Origin: Endomicrobiia bacterium
GTDB lineage: Bacteria > Elusimicrobiota > Endomicrobiia > DTEH01
Length of the DNA stretch: 64,000 nucleotides
Direction: 5' to 3'
Assembly: GCA_039630545.1 (NCBI GenBank)
Contig: JBCNUU010000003.1
Span: 99,250 to 163,249, forward strand
Shown here: positions 13,687-49,851 of the stretch, piece by piece
How positions within the stretch are numbered: position 1 is the stretch's first letter
How the letters are laid out: the number at the start of each line of letters is the position of its first letter
Translations under genes and position numbers: made by a program
The notes under the pieces: model-generated
Told to the model about the DNA's origin: nothing
The model's database searches: none
The model's input: the letters and a program-made list of their open reading frames with translations, nothing else

Positions 13687-14003
13687 GGTGTTTTACTTAA
13701 TTTTTATATTACCTTAAGTATTCCTTTTGATCTCATTTTTATAGATTTCTTTAATAAAAAAGATAAAATTTGTTTTTTGTCTTACAAAATGGGACATGGA
13801 TGTAAATTTAGTAATTATGCGAAAATTAGTCATAGCTGAATTTGCAAATTTATACCTCGTTTACCGAAAGCTTTTTAATTATCATTTTAAAAATTTTCAC
13901 TATCATCATTTGTGTTACTTTTATAAAATTCGTGCTACTTTGTCAATATCAAAAAATTATTTTTTATTTTGAATATTGAAAACCAAAAGTTACTCGATAA
14001 GTT

Positions 14004-14201: not shown

Positions 14202-14365
14202 GTATTCTTTATATTCCTTAGAATTTTTTATTAGATTTGCTTTATGTTTTAATAATTCCTTTACTACTTGATTAATGTCTTGTTTTGTAATATTTATTCT
14301 CCTTCTTAATAAAATTATGTTAAAAACTATGTTAACACTATTTTCAAGATAATTTTTGCTGATAG

Positions 14366-17340: not shown

Positions 17341-17845
17341 TTTAAATATTTTAATTACTGAAGAAGAAATTAAAAATAAAGTAACTGAACTTGCCAAAAA
17401 CATATCTAAAGATTATAAAGGGAAAAATCTTCTAATTGTTGGAATTCTTAAAGGCAGCAGTATATTCTTAAGTGATTTGATAAGAAAACTCACTATAAAC
17501 TGTGAGATAGATTTTGTAGCTTTACGTTCTTATAACTCTAAAAAACCAGATAGTTTTATTCAAGTAATTTTGGATTTATATAAAAGCCCTGCAGGTAAGG
17601 ATGTATTAATAGTAGATGACATTTTAGACACAGGAAGAACGCTTGAATTTTTAAAGAAAAATCTTCTTGCAAGGAATACAAAATCTGTGAAAATTTGTGT
17701 GCTTCTTAATAAAATTAAAAAAAGAAATTCTAAAATTAAAGCTGATTATAAAGGTTTTGATATCCCGGATAAATTTGTAGTTGGCTATGGTCTTGACTTT
17801 AAAGAAAAATATCGTAATTTACCTTATATAGCAACAATTAAATGA
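17333..17845 (+). CDS. hpt: hypoxanthine-guanine phosphoribosyltransferase
   Basis: PRPP-binding motif VLIVDDILDTGRTL. 170 aa. Confidence 0.85.
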   Translation: MPNLNILITEEEIKNKVTELAKNISKDYKGKNLLIVGILKGSSIFLSDLIRKLTINCEIDFVALRSYNSKKPDSFIQVILDLYKSPAGKDVLIVDDILDTGRTLEFLKKNLLARNTKSVKICVLLNKIKKRNSKIKADYKGFDIPDKFVVGYGLDFKEKYRNLPYIATIK

Positions 17846-17864
17846 AAAGAGGTTAAAACATTCC

Positions 17865-19667
17865 ATGAAAAAAAATGAGTTAAGATCTTTAATATCGTGG
17901 GTGCTTATTTTCTTTTTAATTTTTATGTTCTTTCGCGGAATAAAAGACATACAGGCAGAGAAAGAAATCCTTTATTCTGATTTTAAATCTCTCTTAAGGG
18001 AAGGGAAAATTCTGGAGGTAAAGTTAAAATCAGATGTAATTTCTGGTAAATATAGAGAGGACTCAAAAGTAATAAATTTTAAAACTTACAGAATCCCTGA
18101 AGACTCCAGACTGGTGGAGGAATTAGAATACTATAATGTAAAATTCACAGCAACTGCTGATAGAGGAAGCTGGTTTTGGTCTGTGCTTTTGAACTTTGGA
18201 CCTGTAGTGTTAATATTTATACTTTGGTATTTATGGACAAAACAACTTCAATCCGGCGGAAAACAAGCAATGATGTTTGGAAAATCTCGTGCGAGGTTAT
18301 ATACAGGTAAAAACAAAAGCGATGTTACATTTAAAGATGTTGCTGGATGTGATGAGGTAAAAGAAGAACTGCAGGAGATAATAGAGTTTTTAAAAGACCC
18401 AAAAAAATTTCAGCGACTTGGAGGAAAAATTCCAAAAGGCGTTTTGCTTTATGGACCTCCAGGAACAGGAAAAACTCTTCTTGCTAAAGCAGTAGCAGGT
18501 GAAGCTGGTGTTCCGTTTTTTTCTGCGTCGGGTTCTGAATTTGTGGAGATGTTTGTTGGAGTTGGGGCATCCAGAGTAAGAGATCTTTTCGAACAAGGAA
18601 GAAAATACGCTCCGTGTTTGCTTTTCATAGATGAACTTGATGCAGTTGGAAGACACAGGTTTGCAGGAATAGGTGGTGGGCATGATGAAAGAGAACAAAC
18701 CTTAAATCAACTCCTTGTAGAATTAGACGGGTTTGATACTACAGAAGGTGTAATTTTAATAGGAGCAACAAATAGGCCCGATGTTTTAGATCCCGCGTTG
18801 TTAAGGCCTGGTCGTTTTGATAGACACATTGTAGTTCCTGTCCCTGATATTAAAGGAAGAGAAGAAATCCTTAAAGTCCACACAAGAAAAGTAAAATTAG
18901 CAGATGATGTAAACTTATCAATAATAGCTCAAAGAACTCCTGGTTTTGTAGGAGCAGACCTTGCAAACTTAGTAAACGAAGCAGCACTCTTAGCAGCAAG
19001 AAAAAATAAAGATGCAGTTGATATGTCTGACTTTGATGAGGCAATTGAAAAAGTAATGGCAGGACCAGCACGAAAATCAAGAGTAATTTCTGAAAGAGAA
19101 AAGAAAATTATCGCCTACCATGAAGCAGGACACGCTTTAGTTGCAAAACTCACACCTGGCTGTGATCCTGTTCATAAAATTTCTCTTATTCCAAGAGGAC
19201 CAGCGTTAGGTTATACATTACAGCTTCCTGCAGAAGACAAATACATAATCTCAAAACAAGAACTGTTAAACAAAATTTCAGTTTTGTTAGGAGGAAGGAC
19301 TGCTGAAAAAATTGTGTTTAACGATATCACAACAGGAGCACAAAATGATCTTTCAAAAGCAACAGAAATAGCAACTAAAATGGTTACAGAATATGGTATG
19401 TCTGAAAAAATAGGTCCTTTAACTTTAAGAAAACGTGAAGAAGAAATTTTTTTAGGCAGGGACTATCTTACAAAAGAAAAAATGTATTCAGAAGCTACTG
19501 CCAGACTTATTGATGAAGAAATTAAAAATATTGTAGAAAGTTGTTCTCAGGGTGTAGAAAATCTATTGTCAAAGAATATAAATAAACTTCACTCATTAGC
19601 ACAAAAGTTAATAGAAAAAGAAGTCCTTGAAGCAGCTGAAATTGATGAGATTATAGCTAACAGTTAA
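17865..19667 (+). CDS. ftsH: ATP-dependent zinc metalloprotease FtsH
   Basis: N-terminal TM segments, Walker [12 protein letters not shown] region and the HEAGH zinc motif. Confidence 0.95.
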
Positions 19668-24569: not shown

Positions 24570-24742
24570 TAGGCAACTTTATTTCTCATCTTAACTTCCA
24601 CACATCAAAAGTAATCATGTTTCTACTCTAAAAAACTTATTAGGACTATTTTCCGACGGAAAATACCTCGACAAATAAATTTGTATTTTGTAAAAAATAA
24701 CACTTTTTAGTTTTAATAATAAATAATTGGAGGTGAGGATTT

Positions 24743-24928
24743 ATGAAGTTTAAAATTTTTTTGTTGTTATTTTTACTTAGTCATATTCTATTTTGTGAAG
24801 TTCATAAAGAATTTCAATACACAGGTTTTTTGCGTGAGTTCGGCCAGACAGTAAGTGGTCAACGCACAATAGTTTTTAATATATATTCACAGCCTACAGT
24901 TGAGGTACCTTCAATCTTGAAAATTTAG
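24743..24928 (+). CDS. small hypothetical signal-peptide ORF (possibly the first fragment of a degraded gene)
   Basis: 61 aa, MKFKIFLLLFLLSHILFC signal-like N-terminus, GGAGGTGAGG RBS. It is followed by several short open stretches in other frames. Confidence 0.2.
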   Translation: MKFKIFLLLFLLSHILFCEVHKEFQYTGFLREFGQTVSGQRTIVFNIYSQPTVEVPSILKI

Positions 24929-25350
24929 CAACTTTATTATTATAAAACAACGGTCCATTTAGAAGGAATCCCATCAATTGAAGGTTATAAATTTGAAGAA
25001 ATGGTCTGAAGATATTGAGGCAGAGGCTAACTCTGTTTCAATTGTTATAAAGATACCTATATAAAAGCACATTTCAAAGAAATATCAAAACAACATGTTC
25101 TGTCAATAATATCTGTGTTAATTGATGGAGGAATAGTAGATAAGGAACCATTTAAGGATCACTCTGAGCACAACGAAGTTGTAAAACTCACACCTGTTGC
25201 TAAAACCTATATATAAATTAAAAGTTGGTCAATAATAATCTCTTCTGAAGGCGAAGAAATAGAAATAACAGATAATCCTTTATATCTTACGATGGGTTCC
25301 TTGAGCAAATGTTATAAATATGAAATCTAATATTTCAATTATAACAGCGT

Positions 25351-26059: not shown

Positions 26060-27403
26060 TTATTTTAAAAATTTTACAGAAGCTAAAGTTGCACCTAAAA
26101 ATTTTTCTTTTCCGCCATTGAGATAGTTTAGTCCTAATGATTGTCCATAAGTTACTTGTTTTATTATTTCAGGAGCTATTACTACATCAATAGCCCTTCC
26201 ATTAAATTCGCTGGCAGTAAATGTAATTTCAAAGTTTAGTTCGTCTTTAGAAATAGCTAAATCAGTGGCAGCATCTGATTTTACTTCTAATTGTTGTTGA
26301 TTCTGTTGAGATTTTGTGGTTACGATTTTGTCAATAAGTTCTCCAAAAGTATAAACTTCTCCTTCATTGTTTATTAATCTAAAATGTCCTTCTTTCCAGG
26401 TTTCATCTGCATAGATTTTTCCACCTCTAAGGTGGATTTTGTCAAAGCCGTCCGGCATAATTTTTGAAAGAGTATGGGTTATAGCTAAACCTAAATTTTT
26501 GGTTTCTACAAATTTTGAAACAAAAAGTTCACCAAATTTTACAAATTTTCCTTGTTCTGTATCATAATAACCATCTTTAGGTATTACTGGGGAGTCAGGA
26601 GTTGTAACTTTGGTTAATGCGGTTTCATCAAAACCATAAGTCGCGTTCCCTTTGAGTTCAGCTCCCGGAAATCTTATGTCTAAAGCTATCTCTGGGTTTT
26701 CAGTATTCCAGTTTATTATTCCATCAGTAGAATTTATATCAGTGATGCTTACATTAACATATTCTTTTATTTTTTGATAATCAGGTCCCCATATTTTTTC
26801 TCTGTGAGTAAACGATTCTGGCATCCACCAGGTATAAGTTGTTTGTTGTGGCTGGTCTAAAATGTAGTTGTAGTTAGCAGTATAGGTGTGTTTTTGAAGT
26901 TCACCGATTTCGTTTTCAACTCTGTAGTAGTCAACAGTGTTTGAAAGTTCCCATTCTCTTTTTACTAACCTGTTTTGTGGTGGATTTTCTCCTAAGTGAA
27001 ACCAGGTGTGGTTTCTTATTTTTGGCACATCTAAGATGTTTTCTATAGGTTTTTCAAAAGTAAGTAAGTCGTAGTAGTAGTTAAGTTTACGCCACGGTTC
27101 TTCTGCTTCTCTTTTGTTTAATACTAAAAATTTTACCTGGTTTTGTTGTGGTTTAAGGATATATTCTTCCACTCTTACTCTGTAACCATAAGCATCCCTT
27201 AATGATTTACCAAGTTGGTAGTCAGCTTGTTTTAATTCGTTTATGCTTTCATTAAGGTAGCCATCTTGTATAAACTCTATAGCTATTTCAGAGTTTAATT
27301 CTTGTGAGATGGTAAGTTCTTGTTGGACTGAAAGGTCCTCCTGGGAGTGTAGATATAATTGTATTAATAAAATTATTATTGTTGATATTAATATTTTTTT
27401 CAT
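26060..27403 (-). CDS. hypothetical secreted protein (447 aa), last gene of the ECF sigma operon
   Basis: Start reassigned to the ATG at 27403, preceded by GGAGG. Signal peptide MKKILISTIIILLIQLYLHS. No recognisable domain. Confidence 0.55.
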   Translation of the reverse strand: MKKILISTIIILLIQLYLHSQEDLSVQQELTISQELNSEIAIEFIQDGYLNESINELKQADYQLGKSLRDAYGYRVRVEEYILKPQQNQVKFLVLNKREAEEPWRKLNYYYDLLTFEKPIENILDVPKIRNHTWFHLGENPPQNRLVKREWELSNTVDYYRVENEIGELQKHTYTANYNYILDQPQQTTYTWWMPESFTHREKIWGPDYQKIKEYVNVSITDINSTDGIINWNTENPEIALDIRFPGAELKGNATYGFDETALTKVTTPDSPVIPKDGYYDTEQGKFVKFGELFVSKFVETKNLGLAITHTLSKIMPDGFDKIHLRGGKIYADETWKEGHFRLINNEGEVYTFGELIDKIVTTKSQQNQQQLEVKSDAATDLAISKDELNFEITFTASEFNGRAIDVVIAPEIIKQVTYGQSLGLNYLNGGKEKFLGATLASVKFLK

Positions 27404-27419
27404 TTTATTCCTCCTTTTT

Positions 27420-28016
27420 TTAACCTCTAATTCCGCATACATAGGTGTCTAATATAGAATTTTTTTTGCCAAAACTATCATAGGTATAATCTGTCGCGTT
27501 GGGATCGGGAATCCAGATTTCTTTGTCCACTACAAACATATATTGGTATCTTCCAGGTTTTAATGCAATCTCTGCAACCCACTTTCCTTTTTCTTTTTTG
27601 CATTTGGTTTTGTTTATGTCCCATTTGTTAAAGTCTCCTGCTATAGCCACAGATTGTGCTTCAGGTAAATCAATTTCAAACCTTACGACAACTCTTTTTT
27701 GATATATCTTTCTTGATAAAGGAAACCATAAAAGCATAAAAATTAAAATAATCCCAAAAACGAATGCTTGTTTTGGAAGAAAATTCGGTATAAACTTTTC
27801 TTCTTTTTTTGGGAGGTTTGATAAAATTTTAGAAATTAAATATTCAGGTGCTTCGGAGTGAGGTAGAGCTCCCAATTTTTCTAATTTTTCTTCTAATTTT
27901 AAGTAATTTTTGCAAAAAGGACAGTTTTTAATGTGGTGTTGAAGTGTTGAAACTTCTTTTTCACTTAACTGATTTTCCAGGTATTTTTGAAGAAGTTTGA
28001 CATTTTTGCATTTCAT
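27420..28016 (-). CDS. anti-sigma factor: N-terminal zinc-finger anti-sigma domain, one TM helix, C-terminal CBM48/AMPK-beta glycogen-binding-like domain
   Basis: HHIKNCPFCKNY is an H-x3-C-x2-C ZAS-type motif. TM helix AFVFGIILIFMLLWFPL. C-terminus VVRFEIDLPEAQSVAIAGDFNKWD...PGRYQYMFVVDKEIWIPDP resembles the AMPK beta GBD. Confidence 0.65.
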   Translation of the reverse strand: MKCKNVKLLQKYLENQLSEKEVSTLQHHIKNCPFCKNYLKLEEKLEKLGALPHSEAPEYLISKILSNLPKKEEKFIPNFLPKQAFVFGIILIFMLLWFPLSRKIYQKRVVVRFEIDLPEAQSVAIAGDFNKWDINKTKCKKEKGKWVAEIALKPGRYQYMFVVDKEIWIPDPNATDYTYDSFGKKNSILDTYVCGIRG

Positions 28017-28063: not shown

Positions 28064-28597
28064 TCATATCTGAATTTTTAGCTTTTTGGCAAGCAATAGC
28101 TTTGCTCTAAACAACAAGGTTTTTACTGTACCAATTGGTTTAGAAGTAACTTCAGCAATTTCTTCATAGGAGAGGTTTTCTATGTATCTTAAAATAAGTA
28201 TATTTAGATATTTTTCTGGTAAAGTCCTTATTAAAGATAGAAGCATTTGGGATTCTAAATTTTTTTGAATAGATTCTTCAACTTTATCTTCACTATAAAT
28301 CAAATTTTTATGGTCTTCTAAAGAAACCGGTAGAAATTTTTTCTTTCTTAAAAAATCTTTAGCAGTGTTGATTGCTATTTTATATAACCAGGTTTTAAAA
28401 TTAAAATTTGATTTGTATTTTTTAAGATTCTTATATAATTTGATAAAAACCTCCTGGGTGAAGTCCTCAGTCTCTGTGTAGTTATTAAAGATAGACATAC
28501 CAAGGTTGTAGATGTAGTTTTTGTATTTCTTGATTATTTCTGCATAAGTGTTTATGTTTCCTTTTAAAACTTCTTTTATTATTTCTTCTTCGGTCAT
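28064..28597 (-). CDS. ECF-type RNA polymerase sigma factor (sigma-70 family, regions 2 and 4)
   Basis: Region 2 ...FTQEVFIKLYKNLKKY...WLYKIAINTAKDFLRKK and region 4 LSYEEIAEVTSKPIGTVKTLLFRAKLLL. Confidence 0.8.
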   Translation of the reverse strand: MTEEEIIKEVLKGNINTYAEIIKKYKNYIYNLGMSIFNNYTETEDFTQEVFIKLYKNLKKYKSNFNFKTWLYKIAINTAKDFLRKKKFLPVSLEDHKNLIYSEDKVEESIQKNLESQMLLSLIRTLPEKYLNILILRYIENLSYEEIAEVTSKPIGTVKTLLFRAKLLLAKKLKIQI

Positions 28598-29232
28598 TAT
28601 CTTTCTATGATTTCCTTCTCTTTTGTTTCCTTAAGAAGTTCTTTTTCTATTATTTCGTGTTTTGACTTGATTATGTTTTCCTTTATTAATTGGAAGGATT
28701 TTTTTGTGGAGATACCGTTTTTTATTATTTCTAAAGAAACCTCAGGACTGATGTTATTTTTTCTGGCATAGTTTATTAATGATAAAAATTTCAAACTTTC
28801 TTTTACAGGTAAATTTGAATTTGATGAAGTTTTTAAAATTTGAATTATTTCATAAAAGGTAATGCCTTGTTCTATCTGGTCAGCTAGATATTGAATGGAA
28901 TATTCCAGTTCACTTTTGGAAATTTTAGGGTAAAATTCGTCTACTAAAATTTTAGCGATTTTGTAGGTGCTGATTTTTTTAATAAGTGTAGTGTAGAAAA
29001 GCAAGTAGTCAACTTTTTTTGCTATAGCTTCTTTTACTCTTAAAAGAGCTAAATTATAAAGTATGTTGTCTGAGTTTATATATTTTTCCAGCGCAGTTGT
29101 AATGTTTAGAATTTGTTGTTCTGAAAAGTTAGTTTGAGTTTTTAAAATTTCTTTTATTTCATTCTGACTTCCAAAAGAAAATTTATATATTGTGAAAGTA
29201 AAAAGAATAAATATAAAGATTCTCTTTGCCAT
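28597..29232 (-). CDS. hypothetical secreted protein (211 aa)
   Basis: Signal peptide MAKRIFIFILFTFTIYKFSFG. Its stop overlaps the sigma-factor start (ATGA). Confidence 0.5.
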   Translation of the reverse strand: MAKRIFIFILFTFTIYKFSFGSQNEIKEILKTQTNFSEQQILNITTALEKYINSDNILYNLALLRVKEAIAKKVDYLLFYTTLIKKISTYKIAKILVDEFYPKISKSELEYSIQYLADQIEQGITFYEIIQILKTSSNSNLPVKESLKFLSLINYARKNNISPEVSLEIIKNGISTKKSFQLIKENIIKSKHEIIEKELLKETKEKEIIER

Positions 29233-38101: not shown

Positions 38102-39481
38102 TTAATCTAGGAAATTTTTAAGTTCTTCTAAGTAGTTTTCGTAACCTTTTCTTCCTAATAATGCATATGTATAGTTTTTCCCTAAAACAACACCTGGTTG
38201 GTTAAAAGCATTAATGTTGAATAGTTCTCCTGCATAAGCTGTTGCTAACTCTAACATATAAATCAACTCTCCTATAGATTCTTCATCAATTTTTGGCAAA
38301 AGGATTGTCATATTGGGTCTTTGTGCTTGAGTAAGGGAAGCTACGGTTGCCTTTTCTTCTGCTTTAAATAGTTCGTTAAGTGTATGGTTGGATAGATAGT
38401 GTTCCTGTGGAAATTTTGGAATTTTTACTTCATAGGTAAACTTTTCTACTGAGAGGAAAACGATTATTTTATCATTTGGTCCCTCTCTGTAAAGCTGTAG
38501 CTGGGAATGCTGGTCTGTTACACCTAGAGCTTTAATTGGTGTAGGACCTATATTTACTATTTTACCATTATTATCTTTTTCTTTTCCTAAACTTTCAGCC
38601 CATAGTTGTCTAAACCAGTCTGCAAACCCATATAATCTGTCTGAATAAGAAAACATGACACATATGTGTTTACCTTTTTGATATAGTAGATAGTTTATCA
38701 GTGCAAACATAAATGCAGGATTATTAAACATTTCATTTTCATTAGTTTCCTTACATATTTTGCAGTTTTCAGCCATGTTTTTTGCGCCGGTTAAAAGTTT
38801 TTTTATGTTTATACCGGTAGCTGCTGCCGAGACAAGTCCTACAGGAGATAAGACAGAAAACCTACCTCCTACATTTTCAGGAATTGTGAAATCAAATTGA
38901 GAGTATCCTTTATTTACAAGTTCTCTTAAAAAACCAGTTTTTGGTCCGGTTGTTATTATTATATGCTTTTTTGCTTTGTCTTTACCAACTTTCTTAACAA
39001 GTTCGTTGTAAAATACAAAAAATGTAGCAAGAGTTTCTGCTGTATCACCTGCTTTTGAAATTACATTTATCAGTGTCTTTTTGATGTCAATGTGGTTTAT
39101 TAAACTTTTTGCCGTATCAGGATCAACATTGTCAAACACATAAAGTTTTAAGTAACCTTTTCTTTGCCTTTTAGACAGAGAATTCCAAAATTTATCTCTT
39201 AAAGCAGTCTGGAGGGCTATATTTCCTAACGCAGAACCCCCTATGCCTAAAACTAAAAGTGTGTCAAAATTATTTTTTAGTTGTTTTATCATTTTTAGAA
39301 TTTTATCGACCTCAAAGTTCTCATAAGGTAATGTTGCCCATCCAAGCATATTTGATTTATCTTTTATTTTTTGGTTTAAATTATTATGAACCTCAACAAA
39401 TTTTTTCTGATATTGCAGTAATTCCTTTTCACTTAGACCTTCTTTAACTTTTAAGATATTCTTGTAGTTTAAAGATATCAT
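38102..39481 (-). CDS. pgi: glucose-6-phosphate isomerase
   Basis: GGRFSVLSPVGL and the C-terminal PGI signature region. Start moved to the ATG at 39481 (MISLNY...), preceded by AAGGAGGG. Confidence 0.85.
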   Translation of the reverse strand: MISLNYKNILKVKEGLSEKELLQYQKKFVEVHNNLNQKIKDKSNMLGWATLPYENFEVDKILKMIKQLKNNFDTLLVLGIGGSALGNIALQTALRDKFWNSLSKRQRKGYLKLYVFDNVDPDTAKSLINHIDIKKTLINVISKAGDTAETLATFFVFYNELVKKVGKDKAKKHIIITTGPKTGFLRELVNKGYSQFDFTIPENVGGRFSVLSPVGLVSAAATGINIKKLLTGAKNMAENCKICKETNENEMFNNPAFMFALINYLLYQKGKHICVMFSYSDRLYGFADWFRQLWAESLGKEKDNNGKIVNIGPTPIKALGVTDQHSQLQLYREGPNDKIIVFLSVEKFTYEVKIPKFPQEHYLSNHTLNELFKAEEKATVASLTQAQRPNMTILLPKIDEESIGELIYMLELATAYAGELFNINAFNQPGVVLGKNYTYALLGRKGYENYLEELKNFLD

Positions 39482-39703
39482 CTTACCCTCCTTATTGTTT
39501 GCAATTTTTTTGATATCAACCTTACATTTACAATTTTTTATTTTGTTTTCCAATAGGTTGGAAATTGTAAGTATTCGTCTTTTTTATTTGGGTTTTTAAA
39601 ACTCATTTCTAAAATATAAGAGTTATGTAATCCAACACATCTAAAATGAAAGGTTGTTGAAATTTAAATTATAAGGTCAAAAGCTGAAATTTATATTAAA
39701 CTG

Positions 39704-40843
39704 TTATTTTCTCCATACACCTGCGATTTTATAACCACAATATTTACATTTACCCTCCTTTATACTGTTTTCTAAAACTTCAAAATGTATTCTGTAAATT
39801 AGGATTTTATTGCAGTTAGGACAATAAGTAGAGTTATATTTATGTCCAGGAACATTACCAATATAGACATATTTGAGTCCAACCTCTTTTGCAATTTTAT
39901 AACAACTTTCTAAAGTCTTAACAGGTGTTGCTGGAAGATGTGTGGTTTTGTAGGTAGGAAAAAATCTTGTAAAATGTAAAGGAACATCGTCTGATAAATT
40001 TTCTTTTATCCATAAGCACATCTTTCTAACATCTTTTGGGTTATCATTTAGTGTAGGAATTACTAAATTTACAATCTCCAGCCATATATTTTTATGTTCT
40101 TTTATTATTTTTAATGAATTAAGAACAGGTTGTAGTTTTGCTAAAGATTGATTTTTATAAAACTCTTCAGTAAAACCTTTAAGATCCACCGTAACCGCGT
40201 CTGTAAATTTTAACATTTCTTTAAGTGCTGAAGGATTGATTGAGGCATTTGTATGCCATATGATTTTTATTTTTTCTTTTTTTGCTATCTTTGCTATTTC
40301 ATACATATATTCATAAAACGCAATTGGGTCATTATATGTAAAAGATATAGAGGGAATGTTGTATCTCTTTGCAAGTTTTACTGCTTCCTGAGGAGTTAGA
40401 AAATAATGTGTTATTTCTTCAAGTTGTTTCTGGGAGAGATGCCAGTTATGGCAATGTTTACATTTAAAGTTACAACCTGCTGTGCCAAAACAAAGAATTT
40501 CTGTTGATGGTAAAAAGTGATACACAGGTTCTTTCTCTATAGGGTCAACTGCTACAGCAGACGGTTTTGAATATACTATGTTGTACAGAGTACCGTTTTT
40601 ATTTTCTCTATTAAAACACATACCACGTTTGCCTGAAGGAATAATACATTCTCTAAAACATAAAAGACATTTAACAGAATTCTTGTTTGCTTTTTGATAA
40701 AACATGGCTTCTTTTTGAGGAATGATTAAAGTTGAGGTTGCTGCTTCGTGTTGAAAAAGTATATTTTTTAAAAAAATAACCATAAAGAGTATTATGAGTT
40801 TAAATCCTTTCAAGGTTTTATATTTTATATAATTCACCGACAA
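39704..40843 (-). CDS. AmmeMemoRadiSam-type radical SAM enzyme (PFL-activase-like) with N-terminal hydrophobic extension
   Basis: VKCLLCFRECIIPSGKRGMCFNRENKNGTLY N-terminal Cys cluster and CNFKCKHC (Cx3Cx2C) radical SAM motif. TTG start at 40843; alternative ATG at 40705. Confidence 0.6.
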   Translation of the reverse strand: MSVNYIKYKTLKGFKLIILFMVIFLKNILFQHEAATSTLIIPQKEAMFYQKANKNSVKCLLCFRECIIPSGKRGMCFNRENKNGTLYNIVYSKPSAVAVDPIEKEPVYHFLPSTEILCFGTAGCNFKCKHCHNWHLSQKQLEEITHYFLTPQEAVKLAKRYNIPSISFTYNDPIAFYEYMYEIAKIAKKEKIKIIWHTNASINPSALKEMLKFTDAVTVDLKGFTEEFYKNQSLAKLQPVLNSLKIIKEHKNIWLEIVNLVIPTLNDNPKDVRKMCLWIKENLSDDVPLHFTRFFPTYKTTHLPATPVKTLESCYKIAKEVGLKYVYIGNVPGHKYNSTYCPNCNKILIYRIHFEVLENSIKEGKCKYCGYKIAGVWRK

Positions 40844-41708
40844 TAAAAGTTTTTATTGTGTTATAGTGAAGTTCTACTGTGTCATTAATGTCAAATGCAT
40901 ATCCTCCACCTAAAGTGACAACTACTGGAGTGTCTTTAAAAAATTTTTTTACGAGCTCATCTCTTTTTTTTATTCCTTCTTTTGTAATTTTAAGTCCACC
41001 TAGTTGATCATTTTCATAAATATCAACTCCTGCCTGATAAAACACTACTTCAGCAGAAAAATTTTTTACTTTTTTAAGGCCTTCTTCTAGCAAAGATAAA
41101 TACTTTTCATCAGTAGTGCCTGCGTATACTTCAATATCAAGTGTGCTTTTCTCTTTTGGTTCAGGATAAATTTCTTTTTGATGGATTGAAAATGTGAACA
41201 CATCTTTATCGTCCTGAAAAATTTTTGCTGTACCGTTTCCTTGATGTACATCACAATCAACAACTGCTACTTTTTTGATTTTATAGGTTTTTTTAAGATA
41301 TTTTATAGCAACCGCGATATCGTTAAACACACAGAATCCTTCTCCATGTTCAGGATATGCATGGTGATAACCACCACCTATGTGGATGCCAACTTTCTGT
41401 TGTAGAGCAATTTCAGCTGCTAAAATAGTTCCAGCTACACTTATTAATGATGCCTCAACTATTTGAGGTGTTAATGGGATTTCTAATTTCAAAATTTCTT
41501 CGTAAGAAAGTTTGAGATTGAGAACTTTTTCTACATAACTTCTGGTATGGACCTCATAGAGATATTCTAAGACTACTTTTTGAGGCTCCACGAAGACTAA
41601 GCCTAAGAAAGTTTGTTCTAATTTTTGTTTTATTAAACGATATATTTTTGTAGAAAAAGGATGAACTCCTAAGTCTACCTCATATTTAGGAGAGTATACT
41701 ATTTTCAT
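40818..41708 (-). CDS. histone-deacetylase-superfamily amidohydrolase (AcuC / acetylpolyamine amidohydrolase-like)
   Basis: HIGGGYHHAYPEHGEGFCVFNDIAVA and VAVVDCDVHQGNGT are the metal-binding and catalytic motifs of the arginase/deacetylase fold. Confidence 0.75.
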   Translation of the reverse strand: MKIVYSPKYEVDLGVHPFSTKIYRLIKQKLEQTFLGLVFVEPQKVVLEYLYEVHTRSYVEKVLNLKLSYEEILKLEIPLTPQIVEASLISVAGTILAAEIALQQKVGIHIGGGYHHAYPEHGEGFCVFNDIAVAIKYLKKTYKIKKVAVVDCDVHQGNGTAKIFQDDKDVFTFSIHQKEIYPEPKEKSTLDIEVYAGTTDEKYLSLLEEGLKKVKNFSAEVVFYQAGVDIYENDQLGGLKITKEGIKKRDELVKKFFKDTPVVVTLGGGYAFDINDTVELHYNTIKTFIVGELYKI

Positions 41709-42804
41709 TATCTAAAAAATTTGATAGTTTTTTTAGAATATAAAATTTTTGTTTGTCATCTATTTTTGATTTTTCTACTAAACAGGTGAATAAACTCAAT
41801 GTTTCATCGTAATGTTTTTTGTCTATAGGATAAGGGTGTCCGTCTTTTCCACCAAAAGCAAATGAAAATCTTGCTGGATCCTGAGTGGAGACAGGATATC
41901 CATATATTACCTCAGATATTAAACCTAAAGCTCTCAAAGTTTTAGCTCCAACTCCTTCTACTGATATTAGATTTTTGAATGTGGTAATCTCTGTATCTTT
42001 AATTTTTGTAAATATTTTATAAAGTTTTTTGTAATCAAAATCTTCAGTTTTTATGTAATGCCTTTGAGGCAAAAATAAATCAGGTTGAGATTTTGAATTG
42101 ACGATTTTTTGCAATTCTTTTATGATGTTTTCGGGTTTTTGTAAAGTTGTATATTCAAGTATGCTGTTTTGGAGTGGTTCTGCATCTTTATTTACAAAAT
42201 TTAAAATTTTAGCTTCTTTTTTATCAGAAATAATTCCTGTGTGAGGAGAAATAATAAACTTTTCAGAGCCAGTTGTTGTGATTTTGTTAAACCAGTGGTA
42301 TCTTCTTGCGTATCCTGTGTTTGTGTTCATTCCCTGTTGAATCACACACCAGTTGCCATGTTTGTCTACAAAAATTGTATGATGATAAAGTTGATATCCA
42401 TCTTGAATACAACAGTTGTCTACCTTTGCTGTTAGTTTTGATAAAGCGATGAAAATTTCATTTTCAGATAAGTGTTTGCATTGCATGATTTCTTTTGGAG
42501 TATTTATTGCTGTTTTGCCTTTCCCCCCAAATATATATATACCATATTCAGGATAAGCTCTAAAAGCCTCTTTTATAGCAGCAGTTACTGTAGTTGTGAC
42601 ACCACTTGAATGCCAGTCAAATCCAGATATACATCCTAGAACTTGAAACCATACAGGATCAGAAAGTCGTTTGAGTAATTCTTGGCTACCATACTCTGTT
42701 ATTACTACCTTACAAATCTCAAATAAAAGTTTTTTTTGTCTTTCAAATAGCCATCTAGGAGCTTTTCCTGTGTGTAGGGGTAGATCAGCAGTTTTATATT
42801 TCAT
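41686..42804 (-). CDS. conserved hypothetical protein, DUF763-like (family assignment from memory), with C-terminal helix-hairpin-helix motif
   Basis: 372 aa. LHTGKAPRWLFERQ N-terminal conserved block. VEGVGAKTLRALGLISEVIYG is a canonical HhH (GIGxKTA) DNA-binding motif. Confidence 0.45.
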   Translation of the reverse strand: MKYKTADLPLHTGKAPRWLFERQKKLLFEICKVVITEYGSQELLKRLSDPVWFQVLGCISGFDWHSSGVTTTVTAAIKEAFRAYPEYGIYIFGGKGKTAINTPKEIMQCKHLSENEIFIALSKLTAKVDNCCIQDGYQLYHHTIFVDKHGNWCVIQQGMNTNTGYARRYHWFNKITTTGSEKFIISPHTGIISDKKEAKILNFVNKDAEPLQNSILEYTTLQKPENIIKELQKIVNSKSQPDLFLPQRHYIKTEDFDYKKLYKIFTKIKDTEITTFKNLISVEGVGAKTLRALGLISEVIYGYPVSTQDPARFSFAFGGKDGHPYPIDKKHYDETLSLFTCLVEKSKIDDKQKFYILKKLSNFLDNENSILS

Positions 42805-43762
42805 CTGTTAGAGTTGATATTTGTGGTAAAGTTTTTATTTTTAAATTACAGTCATCCCATATATAGTCAAATTCAAATGATAGAAATACTTTTTTAATAA
42901 ATTCTTTGCTTAAATTTTCTATAAAATTTATAAGGCTTCTGTAAATAGTTACTCTTATAGGTCTTGAATATCTAAATTTGCCGTCACTACACAAAATCAT
43001 TTCTGGAAAACACAGTTTGCTTTTTTTTTCTTTTAAAAATTTAAACTGTGTTTTTGTTAATCTTAATGTTGAAATAGATATAGAATGAAGATTTTTGGCT
43101 TCTATAGATGCTAATGCTTGAGCTATTATTTTTTTATATTCTTCAATAGTATTAAAAACTGACTCTACAAGAGTTTGATATGTTATGTCAAAGACTGGAT
43201 AAATAATAATGGGTTCTAATCTTAAACCTATAAGAAATCCAATTTTTTGAGCATACCATAAAGCTCTTATTCTTTCTTCTAAATTTAAAGTTTTATCTTC
43301 AAAGTTATTAATTATTATTTTTGGGGATAAGGTTACACCATATACGATTTTTATGTTATCATATAAAATTTCCTTGTTTTGCAATTCAAATATATTTGCA
43401 GTTTTTGTTCTTAATTCAACAAAACATTTTTTAGAATAAAACTTTGCTTTTTGAGAAATTATTAAACAGCATTTACTGAAAACTTCGATGTGTTTTTTAG
43501 TTAAAAAAGAGTCTGTAGTTTCTCCGAAGTTGAAATAGAAAACTTTCTTATTGGAATTTTTAAATAATTCTTCTGTTTCTGTTGCAAAATTTTCTATGTT
43601 CTCATAAATAACAGGTTTTGTTGAAATTTTTGAAAATTTCAAGTAACAGTACTCACAGTTAAAATTGCAGGTCTCCGCAAAAGATACAACAAACTCCTCT
43701 AAATCTATGACGTTTTTACCGTATAGATATTTTGAAATAAAACCTTTTTTTCTTAAATGCAT
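42794..43762 (-). CDS. radical SAM protein, spore-photoproduct-lyase-like (SplB / COG1533 'DNA repair photolyase' family)
   Basis: AETCNFNCEYCYL radical SAM cluster motif, in the arrangement seen in SPL-family enzymes. 322 aa. Confidence 0.6.
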   Translation of the reverse strand: MHLRKKGFISKYLYGKNVIDLEEFVVSFAETCNFNCEYCYLKFSKISTKPVIYENIENFATETEELFKNSNKKVFYFNFGETTDSFLTKKHIEVFSKCCLIISQKAKFYSKKCFVELRTKTANIFELQNKEILYDNIKIVYGVTLSPKIIINNFEDKTLNLEERIRALWYAQKIGFLIGLRLEPIIIYPVFDITYQTLVESVFNTIEEYKKIIAQALASIEAKNLHSISISTLRLTKTQFKFLKEKKSKLCFPEMILCSDGKFRYSRPIRVTIYRSLINFIENLSKEFIKKVFLSFEFDYIWDDCNLKIKTLPQISTLTDEI

Positions 43763-43765
43763 AAT

Positions 43766-44119
43766 TTATAAAGTTGTAAGAATATTCTTTATCGTTGAGA
43801 GATGTTTATGGATGTTTCTTTTTTGTGTTATAACATGTTTTAAGTTTACTTCTAAATCAAATATTTTAAATTTTTTAAGTTGATTCAGTTTTTTTGAAGT
43901 TATTGGATATCGCAGCTGATAAGTTTTTCTAAAAAATAACTCGCCATTTTTTATTCTATCTTTTGAAGATAAAATAGAAGTTTCAAAGTTATATTTGAAG
44001 ATTTTATCAACTTCTTTTTTGAAAATAGAAAGTATTTCGTAGGTTTCTTTAATAAAAATCTTCTGCGAATGAGTAAGATGAAGTTTTTCTGAGTTAAAGA
44101 TTTCTGATAGGATGTTCAT
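43766..44119 (-). CDS. small hypothetical protein (118 aa)
   Basis: Start set to an ATG overlapping the permease stop (ATGA). Lys-rich, no motif recognised. Confidence 0.35.
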   Translation of the reverse strand: MNILSEIFNSEKLHLTHSQKIFIKETYEILSIFKKEVDKIFKYNFETSILSSKDRIKNGELFFRKTYQLRYPITSKKLNQLKKFKIFDLEVNLKHVITQKRNIHKHLSTIKNILTTL

Positions 44120-45492
44120 CTTAAAAATATGATTGAAAATATGAAAGAGATAACCATTGTTAAAATTCCTACAGGAAAACCTATCTTTAGCCATTGAAAG
44201 AAGTTAATTTTAATATTGTAGTTTTTTTCAAGAAGGCCTAAGGCAATAATATTTGCGGTAGAACCTATCATGGTGATATTTCCTCCGAAACAACCACCCC
44301 AGAGTATAATCCACCAGAAAGAGGAATTGTTAATGATTAATTTTTTAAGGCTGTTTACTATTGGGATATAAGAAGCTACAACAACTACATTGTCTAAAAC
44401 ACTGGATAGCAATCCTGAAGAGAAAAGTAACCAAAAAGAAAGAAAATTTTTGTTATTACTTATGCTTAAAATTTTCTGTGCGATTTTTTCTGCTATGCCA
44501 GAAGATTGTATAACTCCTGCCTGTGCAAAAAGGAATAAGAAAAATAACAGAGAATTCCATTCAACTTCTTTTTCAATATATTTTTTTGATTGTTCTTTAT
44601 TTATTATTAAAACCAGACCAGCCACTATTATAGGTAGTATAATTAGAATTGTGTTTTCCTCTAAGTTTAAAAACACTTCGATTCTTCTGTGAAAAGCAAT
44701 TAAAATAACAGTAATTAAAAAAATGATACTACTTATTCTGGCTTTTTTATTCATCGGTGTAGATATAAGACACATAAAAAATGTGTTTTCCAGATGAGGT
44801 TTAAGTTTTTCAGAAATTTCCTTTATATATTTTCTGTAAAACCAGGATAATATAACTACAGTTGTAACTAAACAGATAAGTGTGACGGGCATAGAGTTAA
44901 ATATAAAATCTTCAAAAGAAAGTTTTCCTCTTAATGCTATAAGCACTCCAATTGGATTTCCTAAAACAGTAGTGGCAGATCCTATATTTGTTGTAATTAT
45001 GCAGGATAAAAGAAGTGGAATTGGTGAAACTTCAAGAAAATTACATAAAGAAAAAATTATTGTTGAAACAAACATAATAGAGGTGACTTCATCCATTAAA
45101 CCAGAAAGAACATAAGATATAACTAATAACGAAACAAATACTTTTATTCCGTTTAGATTTTTTAGGCATAGTATTTTTGTAGTTATATAATAAAAAACGC
45201 CAGCTTCTTTCAACATTGCTAAAATAATCATCATACCAACTAAAAACCAGATTACATCAAGTGAAGCGTACTTTACAAAATGTTCTAAATCAGTCATGTG
45301 AAGAATAAGCATTATCCCACTTCCTATAAATACAAATCCTACTCTAAATTCCCAAAAAAACAATGTCCCTAAAATTGATAAAGAAAAAATGCTTAAAATT
45401 AAAGATTGCTGTAAAGAAAAGCTGAATAGATTATAGGAAAGAAAACCTACTAGTATAGATAAAAAAATCAAAAATAATATTTTTTCTTTCAT
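44116..45492 (-). CDS. anion permease of the ArsB/NhaD (ion-transporter superfamily) type
   Basis: About 12 TM helices with the duplicated-halves architecture of ArsB/NhaD/CitMHS permeases. Start set to MKEKILF at 45492, which is preceded by TATATAAT roughly 10 nt upstream (possible leaderless mRNA). Confidence 0.6.
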   Translation of the reverse strand: MKEKILFLIFLSILVGFLSYNLFSFSLQQSLILSIFSLSILGTLFFWEFRVGFVFIGSGIMLILHMTDLEHFVKYASLDVIWFLVGMMIILAMLKEAGVFYYITTKILCLKNLNGIKVFVSLLVISYVLSGLMDEVTSIMFVSTIIFSLCNFLEVSPIPLLLSCIITTNIGSATTVLGNPIGVLIALRGKLSFEDFIFNSMPVTLICLVTTVVILSWFYRKYIKEISEKLKPHLENTFFMCLISTPMNKKARISSIIFLITVILIAFHRRIEVFLNLEENTILIILPIIVAGLVLIINKEQSKKYIEKEVEWNSLLFFLFLFAQAGVIQSSGIAEKIAQKILSISNNKNFLSFWLLFSSGLLSSVLDNVVVVASYIPIVNSLKKLIINNSSFWWIILWGGCFGGNITMIGSTANIIALGLLEKNYNIKINFFQWLKIGFPVGILTMVISFIFSIIFLR

Positions 45493-46791: not shown

Positions 46792-47790
46792 ATGGTAAAA
46801 ATCTACTACGATAAAGATGTAGATTTAGAGATACTAAAAGATAAAGTTGTAGGTATTATTGGATACGGAATTCAGGGTAGAGGACAAAGTTTATGTTTGA
46901 GAGAGTCAAAAATTAAGGTTCTTATTGCTGAACTTGAGGGAACACAAAATTATCTTCAAGCAAAACAGGATGGTTTTGAAGTTTATTCTGCAGATGAAGT
47001 TGCAAAACAGGCAGATATAATTCAAATTCTAACACAGGATCATGTGCAAGCAGAAGTTTATAAAAAATCTATACAAAAGCATCTTAAATCAGGAAAAGCT
47101 CTTTGTTTCTCTCATGGATTTAATATCCACTTTAAACAGATAAAGCCTCCTAAAAATGTTGATGTTTTTATGGTAGCACCAAAAGGACCTGGTGCACTGG
47201 TATGGGAGATGTATCAAAAAGGAGCAGGTGTTCCTGCGTTAATAGCTGTGTATCAAGATGCTTCAGGGAAAGCAAAACAGCTAGCTTTAGCATATGCAAA
47301 AGCAATAGGTGCCACTAAAGCAGGAGTTATTGAAACAACCTTTAAAGAAGAAACAGAAACAGATTTATTTGGTGAACAAGTGGTTTTGTGTGGTGGAGTT
47401 AGTGCTCTTATACATGCTGGCTTTGAGACGCTTGTTGAAGCAGGTTATCAGCCAGAAATAGCTTACTTTGAGGTCTTACATGAACTTAAGCTTATTACTG
47501 ATCTTATTCAACAGTATGGTATTTCTGGTATGAGAAGAAGAGTTTCAAATACAGCCTGTTATGGAGATCTCACTCGTGGTCCAAGAGTAATAGACGCTAG
47601 AGTAAGAAAGACAATGAAAAAGATATTAAGAGAAATTCAATCAGGGAAATTTGCTAGGGAATGGATTAAAGAAAACAAAACAGGTAGAAAAAAATTTAAT
47701 CAACTGCTAGCAAAAGGAGACCAACATCCTATTGAAGAGGTTGGAAGAAGATTAAGAGAAATGATGCCATGGATGAAAGAAAAAAGTTAA
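46792..47790 (+). CDS. ilvC: ketol-acid reductoisomerase
   Basis: [25 protein letters not shown]-binding N-terminus and the conserved C-terminal knotted domain. Confidence 0.9.
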
Positions 47791-47793
47791 AAA

Positions 47794-48426
47794 ATGCTCA
47801 AAGAAGCTAGAGGTTTAGTTTTTATCTTTTGCTGTATAAGTTTAGTTTTTTTTACCTTAAGTTTTTTTTTAAACAAGATCTTTAATGTTTTTTCTGCTAT
47901 TTTTGCGGTTGTAACTCTTCTTTTAATCTATTTTTTTAGAGATCCTCTAAGAGATATAAAAATAAACAAAAATGTTCTTTACTCACCTGCAGATGGTAGA
48001 ATATTTGATATTACAGAAAATGAAAACTTTTATTGTGTAAGAATTTTTATGTCAATTTTTGATGTACATGTTCAGAGAGCTCCTGTTTCTGGAGTTATTA
48101 AAAGAATAGAGTATAAAAAGGGAAAATTTAGTTTAGCGCATAAAACAGAAGCAGGTTTTATAAATGAAAGAAATTTAATAGAAATTTATATTCCTGAAGT
48201 TAATGTGACTGTAAAAATAACCCAGGTAGCAGGAGCTATCGCAAGAAGAATAGTTTGTTGGGTAAAAGAAGACTTTGCAGTAAGACAGGGACAAAAAATT
48301 GGTGCAATTTTGCTAGGTTCACAGGTAAGTTTCGAATTCCCTAAAATTTATAAACTTTTGGTAACAAAAAATCAAAAAGTTTTTGCAGGAATTTCAGCTG
48401 TAGCTGTTTTAAGTAAACCGGAATAG
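47794..48426 (+). CDS. psd: phosphatidylserine decarboxylase proenzyme (archaeal-type, short)
   Basis: N-terminal TM helix, GVIKRIEYKKGKF..., and a C-terminal ...ILLGSQVSF with the G-S self-cleavage site. Confidence 0.8.
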   Translation: MLKEARGLVFIFCCISLVFFTLSFFLNKIFNVFSAIFAVVTLLLIYFFRDPLRDIKINKNVLYSPADGRIFDITENENFYCVRIFMSIFDVHVQRAPVSGVIKRIEYKKGKFSLAHKTEAGFINERNLIEIYIPEVNVTVKITQVAGAIARRIVCWVKEDFAVRQGQKIGAILLGSQVSFEFPKIYKLLVTKNQKVFAGISAVAVLSKPE

Positions 48427-48434
48427 CAAAAGAC

Positions 48435-49229
48435 ATGTTTTCTGAAAATTTATATCTTTTCCCTATGATATTTACTGCGGGTAATATGTTTTGTGGATTG
48501 CTTTCAATTATATTGAGTATCAAAGGAAACTTTTCTAAAGCTTCGTGGCTTATAATTTTAGGAATACTTTTTGATGGAGCAGATGGACTTATTGCAAAAC
48601 TAAAAAAAGCTTCTTCTTCTGTGGGAGTAGAGTTAGACTCTTTTGCTGACTTTGTTACATTTTGCATAGCTCCTATGGTATTGGTTTGGCAGTTAGTTAT
48701 GTATAGATATAAGTTTCCAGGAGCTGTAGTATGTTTTATATATGTTTTCTTTGGAGCTTTAAGACTAGCAAGATTTAATATAGTATCTCATAATTTAAAA
48801 CAAACATTATATTGCAGTAAATTTATAGAAGGACTACCAACGCCAGCTGCTGCAGGAGTTGTGGTGTCTATTATGCTGCTATTTGAGGTCTCTTTAGGTC
48901 CTGATATATCTATTTCAAAAAGTCATCTAACTTTTCTTATAGCGCTTATTCCTTGGTTGTTGAATTTTTTTCCAGCAATAATATTGTTTTTGGCTTTTTT
49001 GATGATCACTAAATTAAAATATCCAAAAGTAAATAATTTAAGATTAACTCAGAGAGTTTCGTTTAAATTTTTTAGTATAGTGCTTGTTTTAATTCTTCTG
49101 GTTTTTGCTTATCCTGAAACTTTTGTGTTTTTAGTGTTTTCTATGTATCTTCTTTATGGTTTAGTGGAATATTTGAGTAGAAGTTATAAAATCTTTAAAG
49201 AAAAAAGAATATCTAATGACACTAAGTAA
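48435..49229 (+). CDS. pssA: CDP-diacylglycerol--serine O-phosphatidyltransferase (CDP-alcohol phosphatidyltransferase family)
   Basis: DGADGLIAKL...GVELDSFADFV is the D-G-x2-A-R...G-x3-D-x3-D motif. The psd-pssA pairing supports the call. Confidence 0.75.
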   Translation: MFSENLYLFPMIFTAGNMFCGLLSIILSIKGNFSKASWLIILGILFDGADGLIAKLKKASSSVGVELDSFADFVTFCIAPMVLVWQLVMYRYKFPGAVVCFIYVFFGALRLARFNIVSHNLKQTLYCSKFIEGLPTPAAAGVVVSIMLLFEVSLGPDISISKSHLTFLIALIPWLLNFFPAIILFLAFLMITKLKYPKVNNLRLTQRVSFKFFSIVLVLILLVFAYPETFVFLVFSMYLLYGLVEYLSRSYKIFKEKRISNDTK

Positions 49230-49851
49230 GTTAAAAAAAGAAATAATTGAGGTATCCAGATATTTAGTTATTAAAAACTATATTGATATTTTTGATGGAA
49301 ATATTTCCTGTAGAATAAATAACAACCAGATTCTTATTACCCCTAAAAGAAAAAACAAATACAAACTTTCCTTAGAAGATTTAGTAGTTATAGATTATGA
49401 TGGAAAAAAAATACAAGGAAAAAATGAACCATCCGGTGAATGGAGACTTCATTGTATGGTTTATAAAGAAAGACAGGATGTAAATTCTGTAGTGCATACT
49501 CATCCTTTATTTTCTGTAGCACTTTCTGTGGCAGGAATTTCTTTTAATAAACCTATTTTAGCTGAAACAGTTAGTTTTGTTGAAAATATAAAAGAGATAA
49601 AATATGTTTGTTTCTATACTGAGAAATTAGCAGAAAATATAAAAAGATTTGTTAAAACTTCAAATATCTTTTTGTTAAAAAATCACGGGTTAGTAACTTT
49701 AGGAAAAACATTAGATGAGGCTTTATTTTTTACAGAAAAAATTGAGCATTTAGCAAAAACTATTTTTGTTTTAAAAATGTTAAGAAAAAAAATAAAAAGG
49801 CTTTCTAATAAAGAAATTGAAGAGATAAAAAATTTAGTTTTAAAAACTTAA
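49216..49851 (+). CDS. class II aldolase/adducin-family protein (fuculose-phosphate aldolase / MTRu-1-P dehydratase-like)
   Basis: SVVHTHP zinc-ligand motif and an overall length of 211 aa. Confidence 0.7.
   Translation: MTLSKLKKEIIEVSRYLVIKNYIDIFDGNISCRINNNQILITPKRKNKYKLSLEDLVVIDYDGKKIQGKNEPSGEWRLHCMVYKERQDVNSVVHTHPLFSVALSVAGISFNKPILAETVSFVENIKEIKYVCFYTEKLAENIKRFVKTSNIFLLKNHGLVTLGKTLDEALFFTEKIEHLAKTIFVLKMLRKKIKRLSNKEIEEIKNLVLKT

Follow-up and report, generated by a model that had tools for sequence, protein, structure and literature searches.

We analyzed six adjacent minus-strand genes in a 64,000-nucleotide stretch of DNA from an Endomicrobiia bacterium (assembly GCA_039630545.1, contig JBCNUU010000003.1, positions 99,250 to 163,249; this whole stretch is the window). 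In the direction of transcription the genes encode a permease, a 117-aa protein from a small open reading frame (ORF), a radical S-adenosylmethionine (SAM) enzyme resembling spore photoproduct lyase (SPL), a protein of the DUF763 family, a zinc-dependent deacylase of the histone deacetylase (HDAC) fold, and a second radical SAM enzyme, of the AmmeMemoRadiSam type (rSAM). We conclude, with a probability of about 0.6, that this compact Endomicrobiia genome has here a tightly packed string of separable units, all in one direction and probably transcribed together, and not one six-step pathway. In our best reading, the core of the string is a new two-component variant of the SPL-family radical SAM enzyme, made up of the small protein and the SPL-like enzyme.

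The linkage of the small ORF to the SPL-like gene is the only one in the string that is strictly conserved. The small ORF is the immediate upstream neighbour of the SPL-like gene in all 17 distinct close loci that have upstream sequence, with junctions that vary from an overlap of a few bases to a short spacer. The pair is also kept in six loci of the WOR-3 type (L088, L089, L095, L096, L098 and L099; L numbers designate the loci compared), which lack DUF763, HDAC and rSAM. Because orthologues exist, we count the unannotated small ORF as a real gene. The orthologues are 36-60% identical overall; those of the close loci, at 36-49%, have in common the motifs HLT[FH]SQKxF[IV]KET and LRYP. The SPL-like subfamily is narrow, with about 35 clusters at 42-63% identity, chiefly from Endomicrobia and WOR-3, and a second tier at 33-38%; a hidden Markov model (HMM) of the small-protein family gave weak matches, in four of the second-tier loci, to the ORF directly adjoining the SPL-like gene. 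The small-protein family is tiny: an exhaustive search of 1.84 billion representative proteins found 12 representative clusters, a fuller set than the five matches from a word-indexed search.

The remaining genes of the string come and go among close relatives. The order small ORF, SPL-like, DUF763, HDAC, rSAM, followed by the gene for glucose-6-phosphate isomerase (PGI), occurs in the window, L083 and L091, so that rSAM is present in only three of the eight HDAC-bearing loci. L092, L094 and L101 have the same order without rSAM. L102 also lacks rSAM, and its SPL-like and DUF763 genes are separated by an insertion of about 4 kb (L102:7910-12044, an Endomicrobiia-type relative) that encodes an opposite-strand HepT/MNT toxin-antitoxin pair, an extracytoplasmic function (ECF) sigma factor and a Ser/Thr kinase with tetratricopeptide repeats. 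L085 has DUF763, HDAC and PGI only, without the SPL-like gene or rSAM, and L090 and L093 have only the small ORF, SPL-like gene and DUF763, without HDAC. In L086, L087 and L001, DUF763 lies beside unrelated genes or the gene for LigA, the NAD-dependent DNA ligase. Only the window, L094, L100, L101 and L102 have the permease gene upstream in the same orientation; L090 and the WOR-3 loci lack it, and in L091 its place is taken by a divergent TatD gene.

The housekeeping gene PGI served as an internal control for the conservation of gene order. It lies 150 nt downstream of rSAM, is co-directional with it, and follows either HDAC or rSAM in all eight HDAC-bearing loci, at about 80% identity. PGI is as syntenic as the genes of the string, which shows that at this divergence even unrelated housekeeping genes keep their place in the order. 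Co-localization that extends beyond the immediate lineage and is independent of housekeeping neighbours was found for the small ORF and SPL-like pair only, and not for the six genes. The initial annotation held that its proposal of a joint function would fail if the co-localization were not conserved in related genomes, and this is largely what we observe, with the six-gene set confined to one Endomicrobiia lineage. We propose that the string comprises a first unit, the two-gene cassette; a second, DUF763, joined to the first only in loci of the Elusimicrobiota type; and a third, fourth and fifth, namely the HDAC, rSAM and permease genes, which vary in presence independently of one another among close relatives and would share their site with PGI through inherited gene order.

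The tight spacing of the six genes is the norm in this genome and is not exceptional. The ORFs and junctions of the initial annotation were reproduced (Table 1), with overlaps of 26, 23 and 11 nt, a gap of 3 nt and a 4-nt overlap (ATGA) between the small ORF and the permease gene. The last of these presupposes that the small ORF starts at 44119, the start picked by the public gene caller on the identical contigs L081 and L082 and the one that agrees with the orthologue alignment. Counted on longest ORFs, the window (about 29% GC) has 55 same-strand adjacent ORF pairs. Of these, 15 overlap and 26 are separated by no more than 5 nt, with a median gap of 6 nt for the whole set. An unrelated run at 46792-49851, which encodes ketol-acid reductoisomerase (KARI), phosphatidylserine decarboxylase (Psd), a PssA-like CDP-alcohol phosphatidyltransferase and a class II aldolase, has spacings of 3, 8 and -14 nt. 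The inference from overlaps to one translationally coupled six-gene pathway is not borne out, since unrelated runs are equally tight and the set breaks up gene by gene. Promoter and terminator scans of the region were uninformative because their counts were at or below the shuffled expectation.

Table 1. Genes of the string and the adjoining housekeeping gene, with their positions in the window
Gene or product	Position	Strand	Family matched
rSAM, AmmeMemoRadiSam-type	39704-40843	-	TIGR04337
HDAC, class IV (HDAC11-type, clade B) zinc-dependent deacylase	40818-41708	-	PF00850
DUF763, strongly conserved putative enzyme with C-terminal helix-hairpin-helix	41686-42804	-	PF05559
SPL-like radical SAM (COG1533 type), N-terminally truncated	42794-43762	-	PF20903
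Small ORF, 117 aa	43766-44119 (alternative start 44194)	-	no Pfam family
Permease, CitMHS / ArsB-NhaD (IT) superfamily	44116-45492 (TTG extension to 45534)	-	PF03600
PGI, glucose-6-phosphate isomerase (housekeeping, internal control)	38102-39553	-	PF00342, NF010697

Pfam and NCBIfam HMM searches confirmed the five domain calls of the initial annotation (TIGR04337, PF00850, PF05559, PF20903 and PF03600). The view that all six genes are one DNA-directed repair, modification or defence system draws on their contiguity, on the lack of an internal terminator-like site and on the presence of two radical SAM enzymes alongside a helix-hairpin-helix (HhH) protein. We consider it quite improbable, given that rSAM, the permease and HDAC are each dispensable at the locus in close relatives, that none of the three accompanies DUF763 in 80 loci from other phyla, and that the HDAC bears signatures of a protein-lysine deacylase. 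In addition, comparison of the six proteins with the PADLOC defence models gave no specific match, only a generic similarity of the radical SAM core to pVip at 27 and 21 bits. Of the DNA-directed module proposed at first, the part that could stand is the small protein, the SPL-like enzyme and DUF763; the other three genes fall outside it.

The SPL-like enzyme is a member of the SPL superfamily and, judged from its sequence, is not a canonical spore photoproduct (SP) lyase. It matches PF20903 (SPL) with 44.7 bits (gathering threshold 27), starting only at position 78 of the 338-position profile. Scores against the canonical SP lyase equivalogs are far lower than required: 54 bits for TIGR04070 (cutoff 400) and 23 bits for TIGR03886 (cutoff 437). 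The cluster motif C32-x3-C36-x2-C39 with tyrosines Y38 and Y40 (CEYCYL) is invariant in 20 subfamily members, and these five residues align with ChYCYL of the G. thermodenitrificans structure 4FHC (tyrosines Tyr96 and Tyr98). A second motif, DGK[FY]RYxRPxR, with basic and aromatic residues, is invariant in the hairpin region, where SP lyase has a lesion-flipping beta-hairpin with an aromatic/basic tip; it is paired with GKFKY of true SPLs only by transitivity (alignment A8).

Several features of true SP lyases are missing. The fourth cysteine of SP lyase (Cys140 in G. thermodenitrificans, Cys141 in B. subtilis) gives a hydrogen atom to the thymine allylic radical, and the N-terminal domain has an alpha/beta fold with a four-stranded sheet and three helices (PMC3467042). 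In the SPL-like enzyme the hydrogen-donor cysteine is not kept, as EAACTSD of wild-type 4FHC (Cys140) aligns to an invariant NFGETTD (G80-E81). There is no equivalent of the clostridial Cys77, for residues 1-31 contain no cysteine. The N-terminal domain is absent as well, with the cluster motif already at residue 32 and the Pfam match starting well inside the profile. We set the enzyme apart from SP lyase because this domain and the hydrogen-donor cysteine are missing and the equivalog cutoffs are missed widely. Replacement of the cysteine by Gly-Glu implies that the substrate or the route of radical quenching must differ from that of canonical SP lyase. We postulate that the small protein and the SPL-like enzyme form a complex, in which the [4Fe-4S]/SAM site would generate a 5'-deoxyadenosyl radical that could abstract a hydrogen from a flipped-out nucleic-acid lesion.

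A well-folded structure is predicted for the small protein. An AlphaFold2 model is all-helical, with seven helices and a mean predicted local distance difference test score (pLDDT) of 89.7, rising to 92-98 over the first 70 residues. Members of the family are mostly basic and have no or one cysteine, and their N-terminal half is better conserved than the C-terminal third. A Pfam scan matched no family, SplA included, and a structure search returned generic helical bundles with no specific relative. We also considered that the small protein might be the detached N-terminal domain of SPL, separated by gene fission. The two share a motif resemblance (FFxxIY..LRYPIT..KL..LKKF vs F..IYIE..AL.YP.T..IL..F), which is not significant by hhalign (E 0.05-0.11, probability about 1%). 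Fission is also at odds with the predicted all-helical fold, set against the four-stranded alpha/beta domain of SPL (PMC3467042); it is unproven and we disfavour it.

The position of a small ORF strictly upstream of a radical SAM gene recalls systems for ribosomally synthesized and post-translationally modified peptides (RiPPs). The small protein could be the substrate of the SPL-like enzyme, and the deacylase, second radical SAM enzyme and permease could be responsible for tailoring and export. The better conserved N-terminal half would be in keeping with this arrangement, as would the transporter and the second radical SAM enzyme close by in this genome. However, the predicted well-folded structure and the near lack of cysteines speak against such a substrate, Pfam and NCBIfam scans found neither a SPASM nor a RiPP-recognition domain on the SPL-like enzyme, and the WOR-3 loci hold the pair without tailoring or export genes. 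We therefore give a peptide- or protein-modifying system little credence and favour a complex of the two proteins.

The WOR-3 loci have a conserved gene of their own downstream of the pair (L088:8033-9040; L089:4318-5325; homologues in L095-L098). Its product, a secreted protein of 335 aa, has a signal peptide and internal repeats and matches no Pfam family; a PKD/beta-propeller protein comes next. As a candidate for a divergent DUF763 this gene was ruled out, being a secreted repeat protein.

DUF763 is most likely a widespread stand-alone HhH enzyme that acts in DNA transactions. The window protein matches PF05559 with 401.8 bits (threshold 35.5) over positions 2-319 of the 319-position profile. 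With at least 8000 clusters at 90% identity this is a very large family, and it has 53 invariant columns in 69 aligned sequences and the C-terminal HhH motif GVGxKTLRAL. The initial annotation allowed that the protein might prove to be a known repair glycosylase. It did not: the Pfam scan gave PF05559 alone, two structure searches returned no Nth, OGG or AlkA and hence no HhH-GPD glycosylase, and no solved structural relative was found by the structure searches. Within the literature library searched, DUF763 and PF05559 had a sole mention, in a 2005 domain census.

In other phyla, none of the other five genes of the string is a conserved neighbour of DUF763. We surveyed 80 DUF763 loci in species-representative genomes from many phyla and confirmed the family in all 80. 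An HDAC, permease or small ORF was near DUF763 in none of the 80 loci from other phyla. An SPL-family gene was near it in one (L039, one gene removed), which by rough judgement is compatible with chance, and three others gave only weak generic radical SAM matches. Neither neighbour clustering nor a Pfam census found a conserved partner across phyla. The census of 135 immediate neighbours yielded 217 families, the largest of which were PCMT, with 6 members, and PD-(D/E)XK, with 5. The top clusters of neighbouring ORFs were rejected as antisense ORF artefacts of high-GC genomes.

Genes for DNA repair recur beside DUF763 in some lineages. LigA is near DUF763 in L001 (14 nt downstream), L087, L004, L078 and L090, and in metagenome-assembled genomes (MAGs) of Ratteibacteria and Omnitrophota (L087:8001-17107; L001:2045-5163) it comes immediately after DUF763; L087 also has genes for XerC, MutL, MutS and an Ogg-type HhH glycosylase within 8 kb. 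Five Dehalococcoidia loci (L011, L020, L022, L026 and L037; for example, L026:9274-10593) have a PD-(D/E)XK nuclease of about 440 aa directly downstream of DUF763, at junctions that range from a 10-nt overlap to a 230-nt gap. This nuclease matches PDDEXK_1, has a C-terminal cysteine cluster and looks like Cas4 or RecB. A block common to Actinomycetota MAGs (L009, L019, L030, L048 and L075) consists of opposite-strand PolX/PHP, a protein-isoaspartate methyltransferase and DUF763, with endonuclease III (Nth) at a distance of 0-5 kb. Repair-type neighbours (LigA, PolX, Nth and PD-(D/E)XK) thus occur in at least four lineages; they are lineage-clustered and rare overall, and we regard them as a lead to DNA metabolism and not as proof.

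These neighbours bear on whether DUF763 belongs with the pair. In a three-gene module for DNA repair or modification, the pair would carry out radical chemistry on a DNA lesion, and DUF763, with its HhH and conserved Lys, Asp and His residues, would bind the same DNA and process the product; the other three genes would be bystanders. The trio of small ORF, SPL-like gene and DUF763 is contiguous in eight loci with differing neighbours (the window, L083, L090, L091, L093, L094, L100 and L101), with an SPL-like/DUF763 overlap of 4-11 nt. Elsewhere DUF763 abuts LigA, the PD-(D/E)XK nuclease or PolX and Nth, and SPL-family genes are SOS-regulated in several phyla (PMC4951493). We nonetheless hold such a module to be doubtful, if possible. 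The WOR-3 loci hold the pair with no DUF763 nearby, and DUF763 is found in thousands of lineages without the pair. The unrelated insertion in L102 and a 500-nt gap in L092 show that separation of the SPL-like gene from DUF763 is tolerated, PGI is equally syntenic at the same divergence, and the repair neighbours of DUF763 are few and grouped by lineage. A bolder form of the idea, which we regard as unlikely, is an undescribed, anaerobe-specific pathway of radical DNA repair, in which a split SPL-family enzyme, with a helical subunit and a truncated radical SAM subunit that has no hydrogen-donor cysteine, would act on a DNA lesion different from the spore photoproduct, reversing or opening it, and DUF763 would be the downstream, HhH-dependent processing enzyme. 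If true, it would provide the first functional assignment for DUF763, a very large and structurally unprecedented family. As matters stand, we favour DUF763 as a unit of its own.

The HDAC has the features of a lysine deacylase of the HDAC11 type. It matches PF00850 with 213 bits (cutoff 27.9), and its best solved match is HDAC11/B of Leptospira interrogans (9GZ5/9RJD; 259 bits, residues 3-289), ahead of the clade-A structure 9RJE (161 bits). Clade B of class IV is defined by a bulky aromatic gatekeeper of the foot pocket and a glutamate at the rim (Phe122 and Glu84 in L. interrogans); its substrates are linked to peptides and those of clade A to small molecules, and the characterized clade-B enzymes are protein-lysine deacylases (PMC13325672). 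Both signatures appear in the window HDAC, as an aromatic gatekeeper Tyr (GGGYHH) and a Glu (LEIPLT) that pair with higggFhh and sElplt of L. interrogans. These signatures would go with acyl-lysine peptides rather than small molecules.

The permease matches PF03600 with 188.8 bits (cutoff 31.9) and is far under the cutoffs of the NCBIfam equivalogs MamN, DASS, NhaD and ArsB. In L083, the 71%-identical relative, the CitMHS permease gene beside the cluster is on the opposite strand (L083:7335-8653) and split into ORFs of 307 and 131 aa, perhaps as a pseudogene. The window permease has its best match in that locus (64% identity) 5 kb further downstream, at 17166-18539.

The second hypothesis of the initial annotation was the import and catabolism of an N-acylated anion, or the maturation of a cofactor, by way of the permease, the amidohydrolase and radical SAM rearrangements. 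The set does include an amidohydrolase-fold enzyme, and in the window, L094, L100 and L102 there is a 4-8 nt overlap between the CitMHS-superfamily permease gene and its next neighbour. Yet the permease is the least conserved neighbour, being divergent and split in L083, swapped for TatD in L091 and missing altogether in L090 and in the loci of the WOR-3 type. Furthermore, the amidohydrolase falls in the peptide-linked clade B of class IV (PMC13325672), and no catabolic enzyme is conserved with the set. We find such a pathway highly improbable.

The rSAM gene product matches TIGR04337 with 360.3 bits (cutoff 220). The model begins at residue 47, and the cluster motif is CNFKCKHC. No AMMECR1 (PF01871) or Memo (PF01875) was detected among the 38 window ORFs scanned, which agrees with the earlier remark that the enzyme is without its usual partners, and the motifs RGC[IVL]G (LRGCIG-type) and PHAG, which we took as hallmarks of the partners, were found in none of the six frames of the window. 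A literature search for "AmmeMemoRadiSam" gave incidental mentions only. There are five in-frame starts: TTG at 40843, which gives the 26-nt overlap, GTG at 40837, TTG at 40813, 4 nt past the HDAC stop, ATG at 40783, chosen by the gene caller, and ATG at 40705. Ahead of the TIGR04337 domain is a hydrophobic segment of about 20 aa and then a linker, TKT(T/S)ATxK(I/V)EPKEV (window 40705-40843; L083:11967-12060; L091:8561-8650). Since this N-terminus is common to the L083 and L091 orthologues, the gene must start upstream of 40705; the true start lies within 40783-40843, and the junction with HDAC is tight with any of the upstream starts. The N-terminal segment looks like a signal anchor, which to our knowledge is not expected on a radical SAM enzyme.

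Some observations weigh against a string of separable units. Were junctions independent, five in a row of 5 nt or less would be uncommon, at an estimated 0.42^5, or about 1.3%, by the gap counts of the window. The scan found no terminator-like site inside the six genes or between rSAM and PGI, so co-expression of the six genes and PGI is likely. The trio stays contiguous, with a 4-nt overlap, in no fewer than three distinct flanking contexts and down to an SPL identity of about 50%, which could reflect functional coupling beyond the small ORF and SPL-like pair. Lastly, the functional independence of the units is suggested by phyletic and syntenic patterns, and the metagenome loci behind these patterns are not phylogenetically independent samples.

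Two other parts of the window drew attention. The two largest apparently non-coding stretches of the otherwise densely packed window, at 13332-14365 (about 1.0 kb) and 24570-25350 (about 0.8 kb), have no Rfam match at E values up to 0.1; the first contains short ORFs only. Two minus-strand ORFs, at 26060-27442 (460 aa) and 28597-29232 (211 aa), have no Pfam match and lie in a tight run with a protein carrying carbohydrate-binding modules (CBM48/AMPK-CBM) and an ECF-type sigma factor.

Our results indicate that it would be a mistake to take the six-gene "operon" for a new pathway. The rare cassette is, instead, a tractable system for the role of SPL-like enzymes outside spores. DUF763 is a well-defined target for structural and biochemical work in its own right: a large family without a function that has an HhH, invariant residues and recurring DNA-repair neighbours.

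The components of the string can be compared with known systems. The window DUF763 is typical of its family (PF05559, COG1415), matching it over the full length and having all of the family-invariant residues. The window HDAC and HDAC11 of L. interrogans both have the catalytic HH dyad, the D-x-H...D zinc ligands, the GGGY tyrosine, the clade-B Glu and an aromatic gatekeeper, although the gatekeeper is Tyr in the former and Phe in the latter. The AmmeMemoRadiSam system consists of an AMMECR1 homologue (TIGR04335), a Memo homologue (TIGR04336) and the radical SAM enzyme (TIGR04337). The window rSAM resembles the third of these in scoring above the cutoff and in its cysteine-rich N- and C-terminal segments. 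It departs from that system in having no partner genes in the window, an extra N-terminal hydrophobic segment and a sporadic presence at the locus.

For the core of the string, the nearest parallel is the SplB of G. thermodenitrificans (4FHC) and the splA-splB pair of Bacillus. The SPL-like enzyme and SplB have in common the CxxxCxYCYL core, with both active-site tyrosines, and, as aligned by transitivity, a conserved GK[FY][RK]Y motif in the hairpin region. In contrast, the cluster motif of the SPL-like enzyme stands some way nearer the N-terminus (about residue 90 in SPL), Cys140/141 is replaced by the invariant Gly-Glu, and a counterpart of Cys77 is lacking. The host differs too, as it belongs to a non-spore-forming lineage of Elusimicrobiota. 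The gene order is alike, with a small gene directly upstream of the lyase-type gene, even though the small protein, at 117 aa and helical, differs from SplA and has no match to the SplA family of Pfam.

A second parallel is provided by the COG1533 "DNA repair photolyase" proteins, whose genes (COG1533/splB) are under LexA control in several phyla (PMC4951493). Those proteins are full length, at about 330-350 aa with the N-terminal domain, and have no small partner gene described, whereas the SPL-like enzyme is truncated and has one. The GE..D motif of the SPL-like subfamily is shared with non-canonical members of the SPL family (alignment A8). Like the LexA-regulated proteins, the SPL-like enzyme is an SPL-family radical SAM enzyme of a non-spore-forming bacterium, and by analogy with them a link to the DNA-damage response is likely.

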